DNA of 64,000 bases from an uncultured Methanosarcinaceae archaeon. GTDB lineage: Archaea; Halobacteriota; Methanosarcinia; Methanosarcinales; Methanosarcinaceae. Made by a program: the position numbers and the translations under genes. The stretch lies in assembly GCA_963733675.1 (NCBI GenBank), contig CAVTET010000001.1, positions 1,088,001 to 1,152,000 of the forward strand. Reading direction: 5' to 3'. The notes under the pieces are model-generated. The model was not told the DNA's origin. It did no database searches and saw only the letters and a list, made by a program, of their open reading frames with translations. Shown here in pieces: positions 14,640 to 23,323 of the stretch. Position 1 is the stretch's first letter; every line of letters starts with the position of its first letter.

Positions 14640-14732
14640 AGAGAATTTCGATAAACCTCTAAATTTCTTCATATGCTTATAAAAGAGATCTAAATGATTA
14701 TTGTAAATCAGAAATTTATCTAAATACCCACT
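14640..14732. mobile_element. ~92-bp MITE-like repeat, family B copy 1
   Basis: AGAGAATTTCGATAAAC...CATATGCTTATAAA...AAATCAGAAATTTATCTAAA; similar to 27876, 46241 and 54100. Confidence 0.65.
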
Positions 14733-16173
14733 AATATGTTCTTGCTACATACACAAGAGTTTTGGTTTCTTCCTTGCAGACAGGACATTTTTCTGTCCAG
14801 TCCTTTCTCTGCTCCAAAGGAATCCCAAGGATACCTGCATTTATCTGGTCTTCCATAATAAGTCCACATTCTTTCTTACCACACCATGGAATTGTTGCAA
14901 TGCCTGTTTGGATTTTATCCTTTACTTCTTCAAAATTAGTACAATCAAAGATACGGTTTAAGAGCCCCGTTTTCGCTTTATTATAAAGGTTTTTGTGGAT
15001 TGATTTAAATCTTAATATCACATCAGCTTCAATATCAGGAAGCGAGATATGTTCTTTATTCCCTGTGTCTCTCCTTACAGCCACAGCAACATTATTTTCC
15101 AGATCTCTAGGTCCGATTTCAAGCCTTAAGGGTACGCCTTTCATTTCCCATTTATAATACTTCGCCCCGGGACGAAGGTCACTTGCATCGATTTCAACTC
15201 TCACCCCTATTTTCTTCAGGCGTTTTTGAACATCTTTGCAAGCTGCAAGCACATACTCTGCTCCTTTCTTGAAGATAATTGGAATAATTACAACCTGTAT
15301 GGGTGCGATCTCCGGAGGCAAAACAAGCCCTTTATCATCTCCATGGATGGAAATAATAGCTGCAATAGATCTTTCTGAAATCCCATAACAAGTCTGGTAG
15401 GCATAGCACTGCTCCCCATCAGAAGCTTCGTATTTAATATTAAATGTTTTTGCAAAATTGTCACCCAGATGATGGACTGTACCTATCTGAAGAGTCTTTC
15501 CATCAGGCATAATTGCATCTAGAGCATCGGTGTAGTCTGCACCTGGGAATTTATCCCAATCAGGTCTTCTTGAGCGGAGAACAGGAACTCCAAGCCTACG
15601 GTAGATTTCGGTATAAAGCTCAATCGCTTCCCTAACCTGCACCTCTGCATCTTCCCAGGTTGCATGCACTGTGTGAGCTTCTTTGAAGGAAGTAATCTCT
15701 CTTAGTCTGATCAAGGGTCGAGTGTGTTTTGTTTCATAACGGAAAGTATTCACTACCTGATAAAGTTTGAGAGGTAAATCCGCATGGGACCTGATCCATA
15801 TTTTGTACATTGGATAAATGGCAGTCTCACTGGTTGGACGAAGAACCAGAGGTATTTCAAGAAGGTCTTTTCCACCGTGAGTTACCCAGTATACCTCATC
15901 CTCAAAGCCTTTGATATGCTCAGCTTCTTTCATGAACTCGTTTTCAGGAATAAGCAATGGAAAGAGAGTTTCCTGGTGTCCGCTGTTGTCGAGGATTTCC
16001 CTGATTATGTTATAGGTATTCCTCCGGATGGCAAAGCCGAAAGGATACCAGACATATAGCCCTTTTACAGGATAGCGGACGTCCATTATTTCGGCCATCC
16101 AAAGGAGTTCATTATACCAATCGCTGAATTTTTCTTTTGGAGGGAGTGCTGCTTCTTTTTCGCTTTCTGCCAT
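14731..16173 (-). CDS. proS: Prolyl-tRNA synthetase (archaeal/eukaryotic type)
   Basis: [31 protein letters not shown]-terminal ARTY. Confidence 0.98.
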
Positions 16174-16532
16174 ACCATCACCGTATTATCACAATATAAA
16201 TTAATTATTTAGTTCATCAAATTCAGGCATTTTCGAGTTCCAGTACCATGCCTAATATCAAATACCATGTTTTGATGGGATGTACAGGCTTTTGTGCTGA
16301 CTGAAAAGCTCTACTCCATATAGGTTAAAGTACCATATGAAGCCCTGCAAATTATCTAAAACTCTACAAAAGGGTATTCAAGCTGTCATATTTTGAGACT
16401 CATAATATCTAAACAGAAAAACGCTGAATAGCCCGCAGTGTTTGTTCCTTTATTTGAATAAAAATTTGTAACTATATGTGAACTAATTATTCTGAATATT
16501 TACTTGCCAGCCTACAAATCGGAAACGAAGAA

Positions 16533-17177
16533 TTAATTCCCTTCTAGGGGCTGGATATTTTCTAAAGCTTTATGCGTAAATTCGGATTTTTCAATATCGA
16601 AAACTATCATACCGCTATTTAGCTTTTCAGCTTCCTCTTTAGAGAGCTTGGTAATGGTAGCCTTTTTTGAAATTATTGCGCTATTTCCGAAAGGATCTTC
16701 GATGATAACTAAAATTTTTTTCTTGCCTGCTATAACTTCTTCGAGCATACGCAAGAGTTCCTGGCTTCGGGAAAATTTATCTTCTTCTTCCTGTACCCAC
16801 CTACTTGCAGTCATTAGTACATTTCTGACGCGATGAAGTACACCTTCGATATTCGTTATGTAAGACTCTGAAGCTATCCCAGGCTCGATAGTGACCCCCA
16901 TTTCAGGTATGCGAATTGTTCCTGATGTTGAACGGATAACCCTTGCATCCAGGTCTTCTTGAGTTTCAACTGATATTTCATATCGTATGGGTTCTTTGCT
17001 GGAGAGGCTCAGAGTATCTGCAAAACGAAAACTGCATTGGCATTTTGCACTAATGTACATGATCTCCCCAAAATAGGGGATATTGTCTTTCTGCCAGTTT
17101 ATCACAAGATCGTCATGACATAGCGGACAGGAGATTCTTGTCTCAATATTTTCATCCTGATAAAAATTATGATTCAA
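16533..17177 (-). CDS. ZPR1-type zinc finger protein
   Basis: CPLC...CQC, IPYFGE, RVIRS, NIEGVL, EDPFGNSAI. Confidence 0.92.
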   Translation of the reverse strand: MNHNFYQDENIETRISCPLCHDDLVINWQKDNIPYFGEIMYISAKCQCSFRFADTLSLSSKEPIRYEISVETQEDLDARVIRSTSGTIRIPEMGVTIEPGIASESYITNIEGVLHRVRNVLMTASRWVQEEEDKFSRSQELLRMLEEVIAGKKKILVIIEDPFGNSAIISKKATITKLSKEEAEKLNSGMIVFDIEKSEFTHKALENIQPLEGN

Positions 17178-17554
17178 TATTTCCCACCAATTATTTTGGA
17201 TCTATCGATTTTTATACCTGAGGGAGTTACAATCACAGTATTTCCTTTAAAACCTGCAATATCTCCACGGACATCGACGATTACATCTTTCAGCTCTTTC
17301 AAAACCCTGTCCCTCATCAGGTCATCGCCCCTGATGTTTGAGATATCTATCATCAGGATATTTCCATTGTAGATCTCCTGCTTGAGTAGGGACATCTGGT
17401 TGATATTTGAGACTTCCGCGATCTTAACATAAGTCTCTGCAGGCTCTTCCTCGAGAACCTCCTCATATTTACTTAGATCGATTTCGGTGTAGTCGTCGGC
17501 ACTAGTTGTATTTCTTACATTGCTGCCAAGGATTTTGTCTATGAATTTTGCCAT
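17174..17554 (-). CDS. sepF: Cell division protein SepF
   Basis: IYNGNILMIDIS, GDIAG, VIVTPSGIKIDR. Confidence 0.9.
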   Translation of the reverse strand: MAKFIDKILGSNVRNTTSADDYTEIDLSKYEEVLEEEPAETYVKIAEVSNINQMSLLKQEIYNGNILMIDISNIRGDDLMRDRVLKELKDVIVDVRGDIAGFKGNTVIVTPSGIKIDRSKIIGGKY

Positions 17555-17730
17555 TTATGCACACCTTTTGTATTTTTTTATATTTGAATAATAATTGTCC
17601 TATATTGAAATCTATATTAATTAATTTTTGCTATTAAGGCTAACCTTGATTTTAGTCTCTGTTTCAAGGAATTACCCGCCTATTCATGTAGGTTTTTTTT
17701 AGTAAGAATCTACATGCTTCAATAGCAGCT

Positions 17731-18216
17731 TCAGAGTTCCATGCTCCATAGTTTATCTCCTACATGGGTTATTGACTTTATAGCTTTACCTGAATTGGTC
17801 TCAACCATCTGTAGCCCCGTCATGAGAGCTTTCCCAATTGCAAGAGGCTTTCTATGAACCTCTTCCACGACGATTACGAGATTTCCGTCTTCTATTTCGG
17901 AATCAGCCTCCACGACTCCAGGAGCCATGATATCTGCCCCATCTGAAACGAAGCTAATGGCTCCTTTATCCACAGTTACAATGCGCTTTTTGAATTCAAT
18001 CTCAAGAGCTCCGCGGACGGTAGGAAAAAGCTGTCCTTCTATTTCAAAAAGTAGAGGCTTGCCATCCACAAGGATAAGGGAATAATCCTCCAGGATGATT
18101 TTTTCCAGGACTTTATTTTCCAGCCCTGCCATCGTTTCACCGAAGATAGACACAAGGTACTTTAACATCTTGTTCTTCGTATTTTTCCTCAGCTGAACTC
18201 TCGACTTTACTTTCAA
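17731..18216 (-). CDS. PUA-domain RNA-binding protein
   Basis: FPTVRG, VTVDKGAISFVSDGADIMAPGV, HVGDKLW. Confidence 0.9.
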   Translation of the reverse strand: MKVKSRVQLRKNTKNKMLKYLVSIFGETMAGLENKVLEKIILEDYSLILVDGKPLLFEIEGQLFPTVRGALEIEFKKRIVTVDKGAISFVSDGADIMAPGVVEADSEIEDGNLVIVVEEVHRKPLAIGKALMTGLQMVETNSGKAIKSITHVGDKLWSMEL

Positions 18217-18399
18217 TCAATCACCTGATTTCAAAAATCTCATGCACTATTTATAGCATAGGGTTCTTGTGCCTTTTAAAGCTTATGTGATTCCTAAAGA
18301 TTGATGAAACCAGATTTTTCATATTTTATTTCGGATTTTCCCTTCAACATTACAAAGAGCATTTTGAGAAGCATCAGAACATCTTCTAAAAATATGGGT

Positions 18400-19062
18400 T
18401 CATAGCATAAGGGTTCTAGAAAGAAACTAACAAAAAAAGATGCATCCTGAGAACTGAATAAATTCCTGTATTCAAAGTCCTATTGCTAAGTCGCTGGAAC
18501 TCATCTTAGACAGTACAGTAATCAACCCTAAATGATATTAATCCACTCTTAGATGAGGTAGAAAGCCACGAATGAGCTTCTTGAAAACTTCAAGATAAGT
18601 CGACACAGCCAAAAAGGTAGTATTAGGATGGGAAATTAGTCAAAAAACATATCAAAAAAATCAAACATACATCATACATAATACTCTGATAAGACAATCA
18701 AATAGGATCAGAAAATCTCAATGTTATGTGATTGATAAAGAATATGATTTAAAAAAATCCATTACCTAATTAGAGAAGAAATAAGTGTAGACTCAATCAT
18801 ATCTGTAAGAAAAAGACAGAGAATGGTAATTTTGGGAAAATACAGAAGGCAGCTGCACTTAATCTTTGATAAAATAAAATACGATCAAAAAAACATAGTG
18901 AGACAACGTTCTCTGTTGCCAAAAAGAAACTTGGAGAAGTACTTCGGGCAAGAAAATTTCATAATCAAGTAAAATGAGTAAAACTTAAACTGAGAGTCTG
19001 TTATATAAATAAAAAGATTGTAGAAATAATTTGTATTAAATTAAGGATCTCTATAAAACCGT
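18400..19062 (+). pseudogene. Degenerate DDE transposase (IS5-like)
   Basis: Pieces ISVDT, IDKEYD, ETTFSVAKKKLGEVLRARKFHNQVK with stops and frameshifts. Confidence 0.7.
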
Positions 19063-19452
19063 TTTTCCTCCATTATTGAGATTATTTCACAATTAAAAAA
19101 GAATCTATTCATTTTTAAGGTTTCCACTTTTACTTCAATTCTTTCAATCCTTTCAAATATGTATTTATGAAGGTCTAATTATTTTTTGCTTAACCCAGTT
19201 ATATTAGTAAAATCAAATTTCGCATAGAGCTTAAATATATAAGTGCAGAACGAGTTTCCCCAAAAAGGTGCATTCTTCGATTTTAAACCACTAATAAATG
19301 AAGTGGCTATGGTTCCATAAATGGGATATCACGGAAATCAAAAACAATGTTTCAATTTTTATTGAGATCCATCATATCCAAAGCTCCACCTTTTATATTC
19401 CAAATGAAGAAAAACTTTGTTTCAAATTGAAGCTAATAGTAAGGAAAAGTTA

Positions 19453-19530
19453 TTAATAAAGGATGCTACATGATTCAGGAGATACATACAGCAAACTGGA
19501 TGTATCTACCTGTACCAGAAGTTGGGTCAT
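19453..19530 (-). CDS. Candidate 25-aa small protein MTQLLVQVDTSSLLYVSPESCSILY
   Basis: ATG preceded by GGAGTGA (SD-like); stop TAA. Confidence 0.4.
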   Translation of the reverse strand: MTQLLVQVDTSSLLYVSPESCSILY

Positions 19531-19650
19531 TTATCACTCCATGATCAACAACCCCATTAACTCCAATAGGTTTTTTGAATTTATTATGATTTGTAAAAAT
19601 TGTCTCGGAAATTACGAAATAAGGTATTGATTAAAAAGATGGGTAGATAT

Positions 19651-19690
19651 ATCAATAGTTAAGTAGAAGAATCAATAGTTAAGTAGAAGA
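19651..19690. repeat. Perfect 20-bp tandem duplication
   Basis: ATCAATAGTTAAGTAGAAGA x2. Confidence 0.95.
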
Positions 19691-19770
19691 GTGTGAGCGG
19701 GTTGGGGAGTGGGGGGTCATATGGGGAGTGGGGGGTATGGTATGTGAAAAAAGTTTTCCGCTCACATCTT
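19687..19770 (-). ncRNA. Candidate structured sRNA or 5' leader with two C-rich repeats
   Basis: Stem TGTGAGCGG (19692-19700) / CCGCTCACA (19758-19766) encloses two copies of TGGGGAGTGGGGGGT; minus-strand TTTATATA at ~19796-19803. Confidence 0.55.
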
Positions 19771-20046
19771 ACAATTACTCTTATTAAAATTAATTATATA
19801 AATAGCTATGCATTCTGTTCCATCATAATATAATAGCCGAATAATATAATAGTTTTATGATACAAACCATACACCACATATTTAGATTTTCGAGTCCTTG
19901 TTTGATCCAATGATATGCTACATAAAAAGCCTGAAATTGCTAAAGAAGCCTTAAGTATTCACATGAAGCATTTTAAGTCATCCACCGCAAGTTTTCAAAA
20001 TAACCATGACAAGAAAGTATTTACTTGAGAACTGGTTCTTAGTACT

Positions 20047-21165
20047 ATGAACCCTGATAGGCTTTTGATTTATGGAGCAGCTTTTGCAATTATGGGACTT
20101 TCGAATGCTGTCATTCCCATCCTTCCGGAGCTTGCGAGCCTGGACCATAGCGCTTCCGGAAAACTTACACCCAGCCTACTCTTTTCAGCCTACTTTTTTG
20201 GAGCCCTTGTTACAATGCTCCCTTTCGGGATTCTAGCTGATAGGTTCGGAAATTTGAGGTTTATAGGGTTTAGTATTATTCTAACAGCAATTTCAGGACT
20301 AACCATCCTATTTTCAGAAAAGCTCTGGATTATTTTAACCTCAAGGTTTATAGAAGGTTCTGCCTGCGGAGCTTTTTTCCCGGCTGCCTTTGCCACCCTC
20401 TCTAAATCTAAGGATCCAGGGCGTTATATCGGAGAATTCACTTTTCTTTTCAACGCAGGACTGGCCACAGGGGTTCTTTTTTCAGGTTTACTGGCGGATA
20501 CTTACTTAAAAGGAGCAATCCTTTTTTTTACAGTTATCACTTTTCCTTTGATCTTATACCTTTTTCCAAGACACCGGAAATTGACTCATTCTCAGAACAC
20601 AGAGGATTCGGGTTCATTATCTCGCTCCCCTGGAAGCCTTTTTAGAGAATCTTATAAAGGGATTATAAAACTACTTAGCTTCAACAATTCAAGGATCTGG
20701 CTCAGTTCTTTTCTTCTCAATGGAACTATAGGAGTCCTTATAGCTTATTATCCGGATTATAGCCTGGATACTATGACAAAAACTCAGCTCGGAAGTTCTA
20801 TTGCCAGCCTCTACGTCTGCGCCATGGTTACATCTCTCCTTATCGGACGATTTAGGATCAAGGAAAAAAACATAATTCGGATTGGATTAACATTTTCTGC
20901 CCTTGGAGCCCTTGTTGTGATTAAATATCCTTTTCTCGGATTTTCAAGCCTGGGTGGAGGATCCGGAATTGCACTGGTAGGTTTTGCTCTGGCTGTTGCC
21001 AGAATGAATTCGGGGAGGGGGCTAGTAATGGGACTTTTTACTACAACCATCTATGCCGGGCTTTCTTTTGCCCCTATTATTGCAGGGCTTTTTACAGGCT
21101 TTATGAGCTTTGAAAAAATATTCATAGCAAATGGTTGTATTCTGGCAGCAGCTCTTCTATTATAG
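20047..21165 (+). CDS. MFS transporter
   Basis: GILADRFG motif A, RFIEG; about 12 hydrophobic segments. Confidence 0.9.
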   Translation: MNPDRLLIYGAAFAIMGLSNAVIPILPELASLDHSASGKLTPSLLFSAYFFGALVTMLPFGILADRFGNLRFIGFSIILTAISGLTILFSEKLWIILTSRFIEGSACGAFFPAAFATLSKSKDPGRYIGEFTFLFNAGLATGVLFSGLLADTYLKGAILFFTVITFPLILYLFPRHRKLTHSQNTEDSGSLSRSPGSLFRESYKGIIKLLSFNNSRIWLSSFLLNGTIGVLIAYYPDYSLDTMTKTQLGSSIASLYVCAMVTSLLIGRFRIKEKNIIRIGLTFSALGALVVIKYPFLGFSSLGGGSGIALVGFALAVARMNSGRGLVMGLFTTTIYAGLSFAPIIAGLFTGFMSFEKIFIANGCILAAALLL

Positions 21166-21224
21166 GATTGGAAAATTTCATTCCAGCAAAAACTTGAGTT
21201 AAGTTTGACATGAAAGTGCATAAG

Positions 21225-21860
21225 GTTACCTACCTCACGTATCTCCTCAACTTCATTTTCCATAATTATGATTACTCAACCAATTATTATTATTGTTATT
21301 ATTATACTTTCATCACCAAAAAGATCTCAGTATTAGCAATGTTACTCTTTTGGGTTTATCCCTGTTTATACCCGGTTTCGTTTTTGTACAGCTCATCGTT
21401 TGTAATAATATCCATATTATTGTGGCAGTTTTCCTTCTCAGTGCAATAATTTTTTTTCCATGTCAAATTGATTTCTTCTTCCGACTAAAAAACTCTCTTA
21501 ACTTGCTATTTTTCGTTCTTGCTTCTGCCTTAGCAATCCGCGTTAGAATCCACCTTACAGCCCTTGATGCTTCCTTTTGGATTATGCCACTGAAAATTTA
21601 TCCATATATAGTATACATTTGGAACAACTCCAAGCCATGAAGAGAACTTATTTCCGGAAGAAAAATCCTTGAAATTAACAATTTCAACAACTAGGTATTA
21701 CTGCACCAATTCCCCCAATAGACGGAACAGACATTCAAATTTCCATCACACTCTCAGGCTTTCCAGAAACATACTTCCTTATTTTTTTCTAAGTTTTCTA
21801 TTTAATTCGCAAGATATTTTAATAAATACCTGAACTCTATTACAATTGGGACTTTCACAG
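21225..21860 (-). pseudogene. IS110-family transposase remnant
   Basis: Minus-strand pieces MSVPSIGE, EIVNFKDFSSGNKFSSWLGVVPNVY, RWILTRIAKAEARTKNSKLREF. Confidence 0.75.
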
Positions 21861-21879
21861 TAGAGAATCTGTAGATTGT

Positions 21880-22398
21880 TTCTCTCACTCAGTTAATATT
21901 AATGAGATTCCGATTGATCTCTATTTTTTCTTCAAGGGAACCATGTCCAAATTTTTCTCGCTGATTTCTGTATTTGATCCGCTTTTCCTGTTCTGGTTCA
22001 TTATTCTTTGATTTTAAAGATAGCTTCGCTATCCTTTTGACATTCTGTAGATGTACACATATATAAAATTCGTTTCCCTATTTACCATTATTGCTCATTG
22101 AAAGTTAGATTAATTTTTAAGCTACTGTAATATCGAGAAAATAGATTGCATCCTTGTGTACATCCGTGGAAATGCCTAATGGAACTATTTTGTTAAAAAA
22201 TATGAACTCAAAAATGATACGAAAAGATTTCCAATCAATTAAGGAATCAATTTCAATAACTTTATCGCTAACTGACTCAAAAATGTATAAATCTATTAAA
22301 GAGCAAAATCAGAAAAAGTGTTCATGAATAAAAATTGTTGTTGAGTGATTTTAAACTCTCCAATGTTCAAATGAATAGAAGTTTATCGAAATTATCTA
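21880..22398. mobile_element. Degenerate IS remnant ending in a GTTTATCGAAATTATCTA terminus
   Basis: 21900-22035 resembles 54275-54410; 22080-22170 resembles 8940-9030; 22229-22398 resembles 51172-51323, 55105-55240 and the reverse complement of 6576-6745. Confidence 0.6.
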
Positions 22399-22451: not shown

Positions 22452-23323
22452 GAGGCTATCCGAAAAGTTCTGCTGATCTGAATGTTATCAATGCGCACGC
22501 TAAATGTAGGATAGCAAGGTAATTTTCAATTTTCTTTTCCCAGCCTATAAGGATTCTTCTGAATCTATTTAGCCAAGAATGTATTCTTTCTACAACCCAT
22601 CTTCTTGCCCGAAAACCAGGTATGTCTCTTCTTATGTTTTCTTCTCCACGACTTTTGATATACGCAGTATAACCATATTCTTCAACCAATTTTCTGATAT
22701 CGGTGAACTCACAACCCTTATCCATGCATATATTCTGAATTATGTCTTCTGGAGAAGGTCTTTCAAAGAATATGGCGTCTAAAGTCCTTTTTATAAGTTT
22801 TTTATCGTGACGATTGGCTCCATCAACGACAACAGAAAGTGGTATGCCTTTACCATCAGTTAAAACAATCCTTTTTGTACCTTTTTTACCACGATCAGTA
22901 GGATTGGCTTCTGTTTCAGCTCCATCTAATGGTTCTTTTGTCATAGCACCATCAATTGATTGTCATTCCCATTCTAATCCTTTTCCGAAATCATACTCAA
23001 CAAGACCAGCCATCCACATGCTCTCAAATAAGCCTGATAGTTGCCATTCCTGAAATCGATCATGTACAGTGCTTGGAGCTCCATAAAATCGTGGCAATGC
23101 TTTCCATTGGCAACCAGTAAAAAGGAAATAGAAAATGCCACTCATTATTTTCCTATCACCCTTTCTAGGTCTTCCAGATTTCTTTTTTGGCTTAGGTACA
23201 GGTAGTAAAGGTTCTATTTTTTTCCAATAATCTTCAGAAAGTTCGTAGTCTTGAACAATTTTCCGTTTTGTCATTACCACACATGATCTGAAATTGAAAG
23301 TATATTATTTTTCGGATAGGCTC
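22452..23323 (-). mobile_element. IS5-family element; transposase broken by one TGA at 22963-22965
   Basis: TIRs GAGGCTATCCGAAAA / TTTTCGGATAGGCTC; ORFs 22963-23280 and 22456-22944 are in the same frame; TGCQW..LP, NPTDRGKKGTKR, RRWVVER. Confidence 0.92.

Follow-up and report, generated by a model that had tools for sequence, protein, structure and literature searches.

RsaE/RoxS of the Firmicutes and 6C of the Actinobacteria carry repeated C-rich, unpaired motifs that pair with the G-rich Shine-Dalgarno (SD) regions of several mRNAs. A different design is that of CsrB/RsmZ, very abundant RNAs whose single-stranded loops present a short motif many times over and bind CsrA. Among archaea, very few small RNAs (sRNAs) have a known function. 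In Methanosarcina mazei, sRNA41 and loop 2 of sRNA154 are reported to act in trans and to mask ribosome-binding sites (RBSs) with an exposed pyrimidine-rich stretch (PMC5867862, PMC6560208). Here we describe an sRNA gene on the minus strand, at 19835-19633, of a 64,000-nucleotide (nt) stretch from the genome of an uncultured Methanosarcinaceae archaeon. All coordinates are those of this stretch, called the window, which is G000:C1:1088001-1152000 of the window's own genome, G000.

The gene has a published counterpart in sRNA047 (sRNA47) of Methanosarcina mazei Go1, a 168-nt RNA on the minus strand at NC_003901.1:846462-846629 that a 2024 Ribo-seq study of M. mazei credits to a 2009 catalogue made by differential RNA sequencing (PMC11456600); its rows are cited here from the supplementary sRNA table, of which two parts (1 and 4) were covered. 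One congener genome, G013, carries a copy that is letter-identical to the published sRNA047 over its 168 nt and 15 upstream bases. The window RNA matches sRNA047 in 89 of 97 aligned columns and is 90% identical to it over 144 nt. Judged by sequence and gene neighbourhood, the window gene is the orthologue of sRNA47, and it is therefore already known as an RNA, though one to which no function has been assigned; a literature search by the motif and by the names sRNA47, sRNA047, sRNA22 and sRNA022, with the 2009 catalogue lying outside it, found no functional study. As read from the G013 copy, the two RNAs have the same promoter, the same clamp helix, the same two C motifs and the same neighbour, a transporter gene of the MFS family. 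They differ by a G-to-A change (GCGGA for GCGGG, with a helix one pair shorter in the window), by the 5' leader and by 20 nt of the 3' tail that are doubled in tandem in the window alone. Our first guess, that the RNA is sRNA41, was rejected because the supplement's sRNA041 has another sequence (GCCTCCT and, by eye, neither clamp helix nor C motif) and because the RBSs of the cdh operon are here of the GGAGG type.

In M. mazei the RNA is expressed at a very high level. Its read counts per kilobase and per million reads mapped (RPKM) were 662885 and 481730 under nitrogen supply and 698607 and 629986 in its absence; no other row of the two table parts reaches such values, and these parts also list no response to nitrogen for it (log2 fold change -0.21, adjusted p 0.80; PMC11456600). 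By our own arithmetic (RPKM x 0.168 kb), this corresponds to ~8-12% of mapped reads. For the window's own organism, metatranscriptome contigs from three studies, which give neither strand nor ends, cover 19679-19753 far more deeply than the flanks (X1: up to 1312 against 35-167 in the flanks; X2: 38-66 against 0-8.5).

Within the genus the gene is strongly conserved. With a query of 171 nt, 21 of the 24 congener genomes gave an unbroken match of nearly full length, at 89-97% identity; in two further congeners the match is divided over contig ends, and one genome, which is 60% complete, gave a match of 21 nt only. When 19 congener loci were compared with the window by BLAST and aligned to it, the conserved block came out as 19835-19680: it begins ~30 nt before the TATA box and ends ~10 nt beyond the helix. 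The RNA body is almost invariant in the 20 aligned rows, and ATGCATAGCTA, in the part of the block upstream of the TATA box, is nearly so. The divergent MFS transporter gene (20047-21165, Pfam MFS_1) adjoins the block in 18 of the 19 congener loci. Its protein is only 63-89% identical in 15 of these (65.6% at the G013 locus, L021), so that the non-coding block is better conserved than its coding neighbour. Because of this conservation, the covariation of the helix described below and the published expression of the M. mazei orthologue, we conclude that the locus is an independent sRNA gene and has an archaeal TATA promoter of its own. Its parts, all on the minus strand, are the following, together with two features further downstream.

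19804-19835, minus strand: upstream block on the side of the TATA box where the transcription factor B recognition element (BRE) lies; the BLAST block common to the 19 congener loci starts at ~19835.
19796-19803, minus strand: TATA box TTTATATA, kept in 19 of the 20 alignment rows; the exception reads TTTATAGA.
19770-19772, minus strand: predicted transcription start, placed by its spacing from the TATA box.
19758-19770, minus strand: 5' arm of the clamp helix, AAGAUGUGAGCGG, from the predicted fold and family covariation.
19747-19752, minus strand: U6 run within the loop, conserved in the family (a T run of 4-7 in 19 of the 19 rows of alignment A1, described below).
19722-19736, minus strand: C-rich motif, copy 1, ACCCCCCACUCCCCA (as DNA, ACCCCCCACTCCCCA), unpaired in the predicted structure.
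19703-19717, minus strand: C-rich motif, copy 2, ACCCCCCACUCCCCA (as DNA, ACCCCCCACTCCCCA), the copy held in common with single-motif relatives.
19687-19700, minus strand: 3' arm of the clamp helix, CCGCUCACA, a bulged C, then UCUU, from the predicted fold and family covariation.
19651-19690, minus strand: 3' tail directly after the helix, the 20-nt TCTTCTACTTAACTATTGAT twice in tandem, by direct reading.
19633-19637, minus strand: first T5 run past the helix, the likely transcription stop, which would give an RNA of ~140 nt.
19534-19540, minus strand: GGAGTGA, by direct reading.
19453-19530, minus strand: open reading frame (ORF) of 25 amino acids (aa), MTQLLVQVDTSSLLYVSPESCSILY, from the ORF list and reading.

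Archaeal transcription usually starts ~25 nt from the TATA box, and ~26 nt separate the box from the 5' arm here; oligo-T runs terminate transcription in archaea. The core arms of 9 bp are TGTGAGCGG at 19766-19758 and CCGCTCACA at 19700-19692. In all 19 congener loci TCTTCTACTTAACTATTGAT is present as a single copy, so its duplication must be recent in the window's lineage. The original prediction, made from the letters of the window, had pointed out the TATA box, the 9-bp stem, the two repeats, GGAGTGA and the 25-aa ORF on this strand, within a GC-rich island in AT-rich DNA. Each of these is where it had been placed, and the island has a GC skew of +0.82 and a GC content of 0.45, against a GC content of 0.24-0.33 in the surrounding DNA. 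The orthologue in the published M. mazei list and the covariation of the stem likewise bear out what was then suggested as worth looking for.

Both the repeat and the helix exceed what shuffled sequence yields and are thus not due to chance. The repeat ACCCCCCACTCCCCA has two matches where 0.03 are expected, and none of 100 shuffles reaches two; the clamp helix folds with -15.8 kcal/mol (z -5.45), a stability equalled by none of 200 shuffles, and the full predicted RNA has a z of -4.43. The predicted fold lengthens the 9-bp stem to 13 pairs with one bulged C and encloses a loop of 57 nt that has a single G, the G of AUAUGA, and is unpaired in the minimum free energy (MFE) and centroid structures alike. 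A scan for promoters and terminators of the bacterial type, with models that are inapplicable to archaea, gave nothing useful.

The window RNA belongs to a much larger family. Its own genome holds seven sites of the motif at no more than one mismatch, compared with none for the reversed word. One of these, at G000:C4:627190-627247 on the plus strand, repeats the design with another helix sequence and is a clear single-motif member, scoring 57.7 bits with the covariance model R1 introduced below. Two others (C1:862521 and C1:933666, both minus) seem to represent another subtype, whose helix (GGACATCGG...CCGATGCCC) is weaker, and a further copy of the motif (C7:54382, plus) stands without the 5' part. 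In other families of the order, CCCCCACTCCCCAACCCGCTCAC was matched at 100%. From 10 genomes, 18 such loci were taken, 17 of them with the motif (one has two copies), and L052, which is without it, was dropped. Each copy has a TATA-like box (by eye ~25-35 nt before the helix), a helix of 9-14 bp, a loop that contains a T run and ACTAA-CCCCCACTCCCC-AA, followed by the return arm and T runs.

Alignment A1 comprises these 18 copies and the paralogue from the window's genome, giving 19 rows, 17 of them distinct, in which the 5' arm of the paralogue is misaligned. Its helix of 15 pairs is 84.1% paired, compared with 25-43% when the partners are slid, and both sides change in 11 of the 15 pairs; none of 500 shuffles reaches the covariation score. 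The loop core, (ACUAA)CCCCCACUCCCC(AA), is invariant; the window has the core CCCCCACTCCCC with a T run before it and AA and the 3' arm after it. The covariance model R1 was built from A1 and scores the window at 36.4 bits (E 3.2e-4), a value that is lowered because the second motif counts as an insertion of 19 nt. Across the order, R1 finds members in 149 of 151 genomes. All 95 high-quality genomes and all 23 genera are among these, and a genome with hits has 1-16 of them, often in tandem; both genomes missed are only 56-57% complete. In a survey of the class, 148 of 151 genomes had it; two of the families covered lie outside the order and gave 72 of 74 and 1 of 2. Of 91 genomes surveyed in the phylum, 13 were hit, all of them inside the class, and no hit came from the remaining 78, which belong to 21 families outside it. 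Rfam, which the original prediction had suggested searching, does not contain the element: release 15 gave no match at gathering scores in the whole window, and at E of at most 1 over 17000-22000 only an unrelated FourU (17125-17175, 21.9 bits against a gathering score of 60).

Among the other sRNAs listed for M. mazei in the two table parts, the clamp recurs in sRNA021 and sRNA022, whose loops hold several C runs, and sRNA023 has a clamp that resembles it (PMC11456600). The form with two motifs is the genus's version at this locus. In two genomes (L042 in G027, L043 in G036) the member stands directly behind the 3' end of an apparent tRNA gene (GGTTCAAATCTCACC-like) and not in the MFS context. 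The member L041 (G029:C1, ~1539463-1539545) has CCCCCACTCCCACTCCCC in its loop, and an upstream GGGGGGTG could pair with this loop. Its 3' tail ends in CACCTCCT followed by Ts, the same as the last letters of the 16S pattern of the window's genome, GGATCACCTCC, plus T. Other family members repeat ACTCC in the tail.

Since the loop is predicted to be unpaired, its motif resembles the 3' end of 16S rRNA (CACUCC vs CACCUCC) and members of the family have tails with CACCTCCT or ACTCC, pairing with G-rich RBSs is the most economical model for what the RNA does. We speculate that it acts in trans: the clamp would keep the C-rich motifs single-stranded, and these would pair with G-rich, SD-like stretches (GGAGUGGGG, AGUGGGGG) at RBSs and block the binding of the 30S subunit, with two motifs allowing two sites to be occupied per molecule. 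We give this trans-acting masking of G-rich RBSs by clamp-exposed C motifs a probability of roughly 40-45%, that is, somewhat short of even.

Within the genus, the best candidate targets would be the mRNAs of the DUF1699 paralogues. In a search for G-rich RBS sites, three of the five DUF1699 genes of the window's genome stood out. We therefore surveyed 30 DUF1699 loci in 13 genomes of the genus, three of the loci from the window's genome (G000:C1:196064, C3:309816 and C6:224698) and 27 from 12 congeners (L064-L093). AGTGGGG(G) lies 5-10 nt before the ATG in 23 of the 30 loci and could form 8-9 perfect pairs with the loop (-17 to -22 kcal/mol); five loci have TCTGGGGA or TATGGGGGA, and two have GGAGGA (-7 and -10 kcal/mol). 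Genomes of the genus have 5-21 paralogues each, and these keep an unusual RBS, (G)AGUGGGG(G)A, in place of GGAGG; pairing with the 16S 3' end leaves its AGUG part unexplained. DUF1699 is present in 45 of 46 genomes of the class and in 1 of 14 control genomes. The restriction to the class that it shares with the RNA is weak evidence for a target, because related genomes share both traits.

Several observations weigh against the masking model. The DUF1699 mRNAs are candidates, none of them demonstrated as a target; outside the genus, only 3 of 20 DUF1699 loci (12 genomes, 11 genera) offer at least six complementary bases, with the loop motif unchanged there, and one member of the class has the RNA and lacks DUF1699. 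That the loop does not vary throughout the class is easier to reconcile with an equally invariant partner (a protein, say, or a stable RNA) than with many evolving mRNAs, and about a tenth of the mapped reads is unusual for a classical regulatory sRNA. GGAGG sites, for instance those of the cdh operon, pair with the loop over ~4 bases only. A complementary word of at least 6 nt was found in 45 of 1468 upstream windows and in 21 of 1468 coding controls (at least 7 nt: 9 vs 6), so that no general enrichment is evident; this census is crude and uninformative, as it takes the first ATG for the start codon by guess, and its set is contaminated by a high-copy repeat. The internal U6 could end archaeal transcription early, and expression in the window's own organism is read from contigs that carry no strand or ends. 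In the window's genome, AAACCAAAGATAGTA stands just before the first ATG of ~64 long ORFs, a high-copy repeat that is probably an insertion sequence. Two other leads to targets were followed and abandoned: the genome-wide excess of the 9-mer GGAGTGGGG (26 vs 4 for the reversed word) is mostly made up of sRNA genes or apparent Gly-Val-Gly codons in long frames, and the site GGAGTGGGGGG, which occurs three times (C3, C5, C13), is followed by neither a start codon nor an ORF.

In the main rival reading, possible if doubtful, the RNA is a stoichiometric sponge or a component of a ribonucleoprotein, whose C-rich and U-rich strands titrate a protein, the ribosome or the 30S subunit in the manner of CsrB/RsmZ. 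The extreme abundance of the M. mazei orthologue in the table parts would suit this, as would a loop motif that is invariant across the class while helix and flanks vary, the multiplication of motifs within one loop (the window RNA has two, the listed sRNA021 and sRNA022 have several C runs) and 1-16 gene copies per genome that are often in tandem. The conserved U run could moreover bind an Sm-like protein, and we regard the U6 run of the loop as a possible site of this kind. We know of no C-rich-binding protein in these archaea. A sponge for a protein or the ribosome accords with loop invariance and very high abundance about as well as RBS pairing does. The Ribo-seq signal of sRNA047 in the same table parts (68-227 thousand RPKM) comes with a translation efficiency (TE) of only 0.23-0.33, which fits co-sedimentation with ribosomes or carry-over alike (PMC11456600); the signal of so abundant an RNA may, however, be background. 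The rRNA operon, tried as a pairing partner, was rejected: it has no exceptional complementarity, its best 16S-23S duplex (-20.0 kcal/mol) being equalled by 9 of 60 random genome segments.

A related and similarly tentative proposal is that of a housekeeping-level RNA, universal in the class and restricted to it, which would be less a classical regulator of a few mRNAs than a stoichiometric anti-SD mimic or sponge and would set the access that G-rich RBSs, or a protein or RNA partner, have to the ribosome. The RNA of this proposal has the number of copies per genome given above, an invariant C-rich loop of 12 nt and no Rfam family.

Far less probable is a small mRNA or dual-function RNA. A frame that starts with GTG (19765-19679, 28 aa) is open in the window and would encode a proline-rich peptide; its M. 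mazei equivalent is sORF_070 (30 aa), which the published table parts list on sRNA047 as a small ORF (sORF) called by DeepRibo with manual curation 'yes' (PMC11456600). The same peptide frame is present in 15 of 20 congeners. In the other five, however, single-base indels alter the peptide from residue 5-19 on, with the RNA otherwise kept, and among 19 family members from other genera the motif falls in each of the three frames, many of which contain stops. Neither an SD sequence nor a leaderless start is evident at this frame. The listed TE values (0.33, 0.23) are below the study's own cut-off of 0.5 and near its tRNA mean of 0.19 (PMC11456600). As far as sequence and these listed values go, the evidence points to a non-coding RNA.

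The original prediction had offered an anti-SD sRNA or a regulatory leader as readings, the latter through pairing of the loop's CACUCC with GGAGUG before the 25-aa ORF. The first of these holds in so far as the RNA is an sRNA with exposed C-rich motifs that resemble an anti-SD sequence; a leader, or an sRNA aimed at the RBS of this ORF, is very improbable. The complementarity exists, on the same strand as the ORF and ~150 nt from it, but it comprises only 6 nt and is not above chance: the genome has 932 occurrences of GGAGTG, and after 129 of them an ATG follows at 1-7 nt. The peptide, whose conservation had been proposed as a check, is not kept. The region of the ORF aligns in the closest relative only, which has GGAGAG for GGAGTG, 22 nt inserted before the ATG and a TAG at codon 7, and in the other 18 congener loci similarity ends just past the helix. 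The T5 run at 19637-19633 separates helix and ORF, RNA contigs from two runs cover the ORF little or not at all (being contigs only, they are no evidence of absence), and elsewhere members of the family stand in unrelated contexts, for instance behind a tRNA gene. The 25-aa ORF is a chance feature.

That the element works at the DNA level, as a G-quadruplex/i-motif or an operator in a control region common to the divergent MFS gene with the RNA incidental, is equally hard to uphold: the predicted plus-strand pattern of four G runs (19703-19736) is there by the usual sequence definition and the MFS gene adjoins the element in nearly all congener loci, but the pattern is a by-product of the motif duplication, because single-motif relatives have only two G runs, and covariation preserves an RNA or single-strand helix, family members lie in other gene contexts and the published table parts show a transcript of high abundance for the M. 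mazei orthologue.

Around the sRNA gene, 18217-20046 is a stretch of 1.8 kb with no ORF of at least 100 aa, between the gene of a PUA-domain protein and the MFS gene. Downstream of the sRNA, the minus strand of 14731-18216 carries an ORF of 480 aa that resembles prolyl-tRNA synthetase by reading alone, no library search having been made for it; the same row of genes continues with a ZPR1-type zinc-finger protein, a SepF-like protein and the PUA-domain protein, all by library matches. At 22456-22944 and 22963-23280, also on the minus strand, a transposase of the IS4/IS5 type occupies two adjoining frames (DUF4096, then DDE_Tnp_1) and is either split or made by frameshifting.

The analysis adds to the catalogued sRNA47 that the RNA appears to be non-coding, that it is not sRNA41, that it belongs to a family found in nearly all the genomes searched of a class and that its helix covaries. 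The class includes the main acetate- and methyl-using methanogens together with the methane oxidisers ANME-2 (anaerobic methanotrophic archaea) and Methanoperedens. For the masking model, the DUF1699 mRNAs with AGUGGGG RBSs offer a testable class of targets at the level of the genus and, as a genetic system exists for M. mazei (a markerless one is described in PMC3177094), the function can be tested directly.

Set beside the systems described at the outset, the window RNA recalls each of them in part. With CsrB/RsmZ it would share high abundance and single-stranded motifs, though its motif is C-rich and theirs is GGA, and we know of no CsrA-like partner in archaea. The likeness to RsaE/RoxS and 6C lies in the repeated C-rich motif; those RNAs are bacterial, show no sequence or structural match to the window RNA by Rfam and present their motifs in several small hairpin loops, whereas the window RNA has one long clamp helix and one large open loop. 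Closest in origin are sRNA41 and sRNA154, which come from the same genus and, by the base means in the two table parts, are highly expressed as well (PMC11456600). The sequence of sRNA041 is unrelated to that of the window RNA, and the GGAGG RBSs of the cdh operon in the window's genome pair poorly with its loop; what the RNAs appear to have in common, on the MFE and centroid models, is an exposed pyrimidine-rich seed of the kind seen in sRNAs that act against RBSs.

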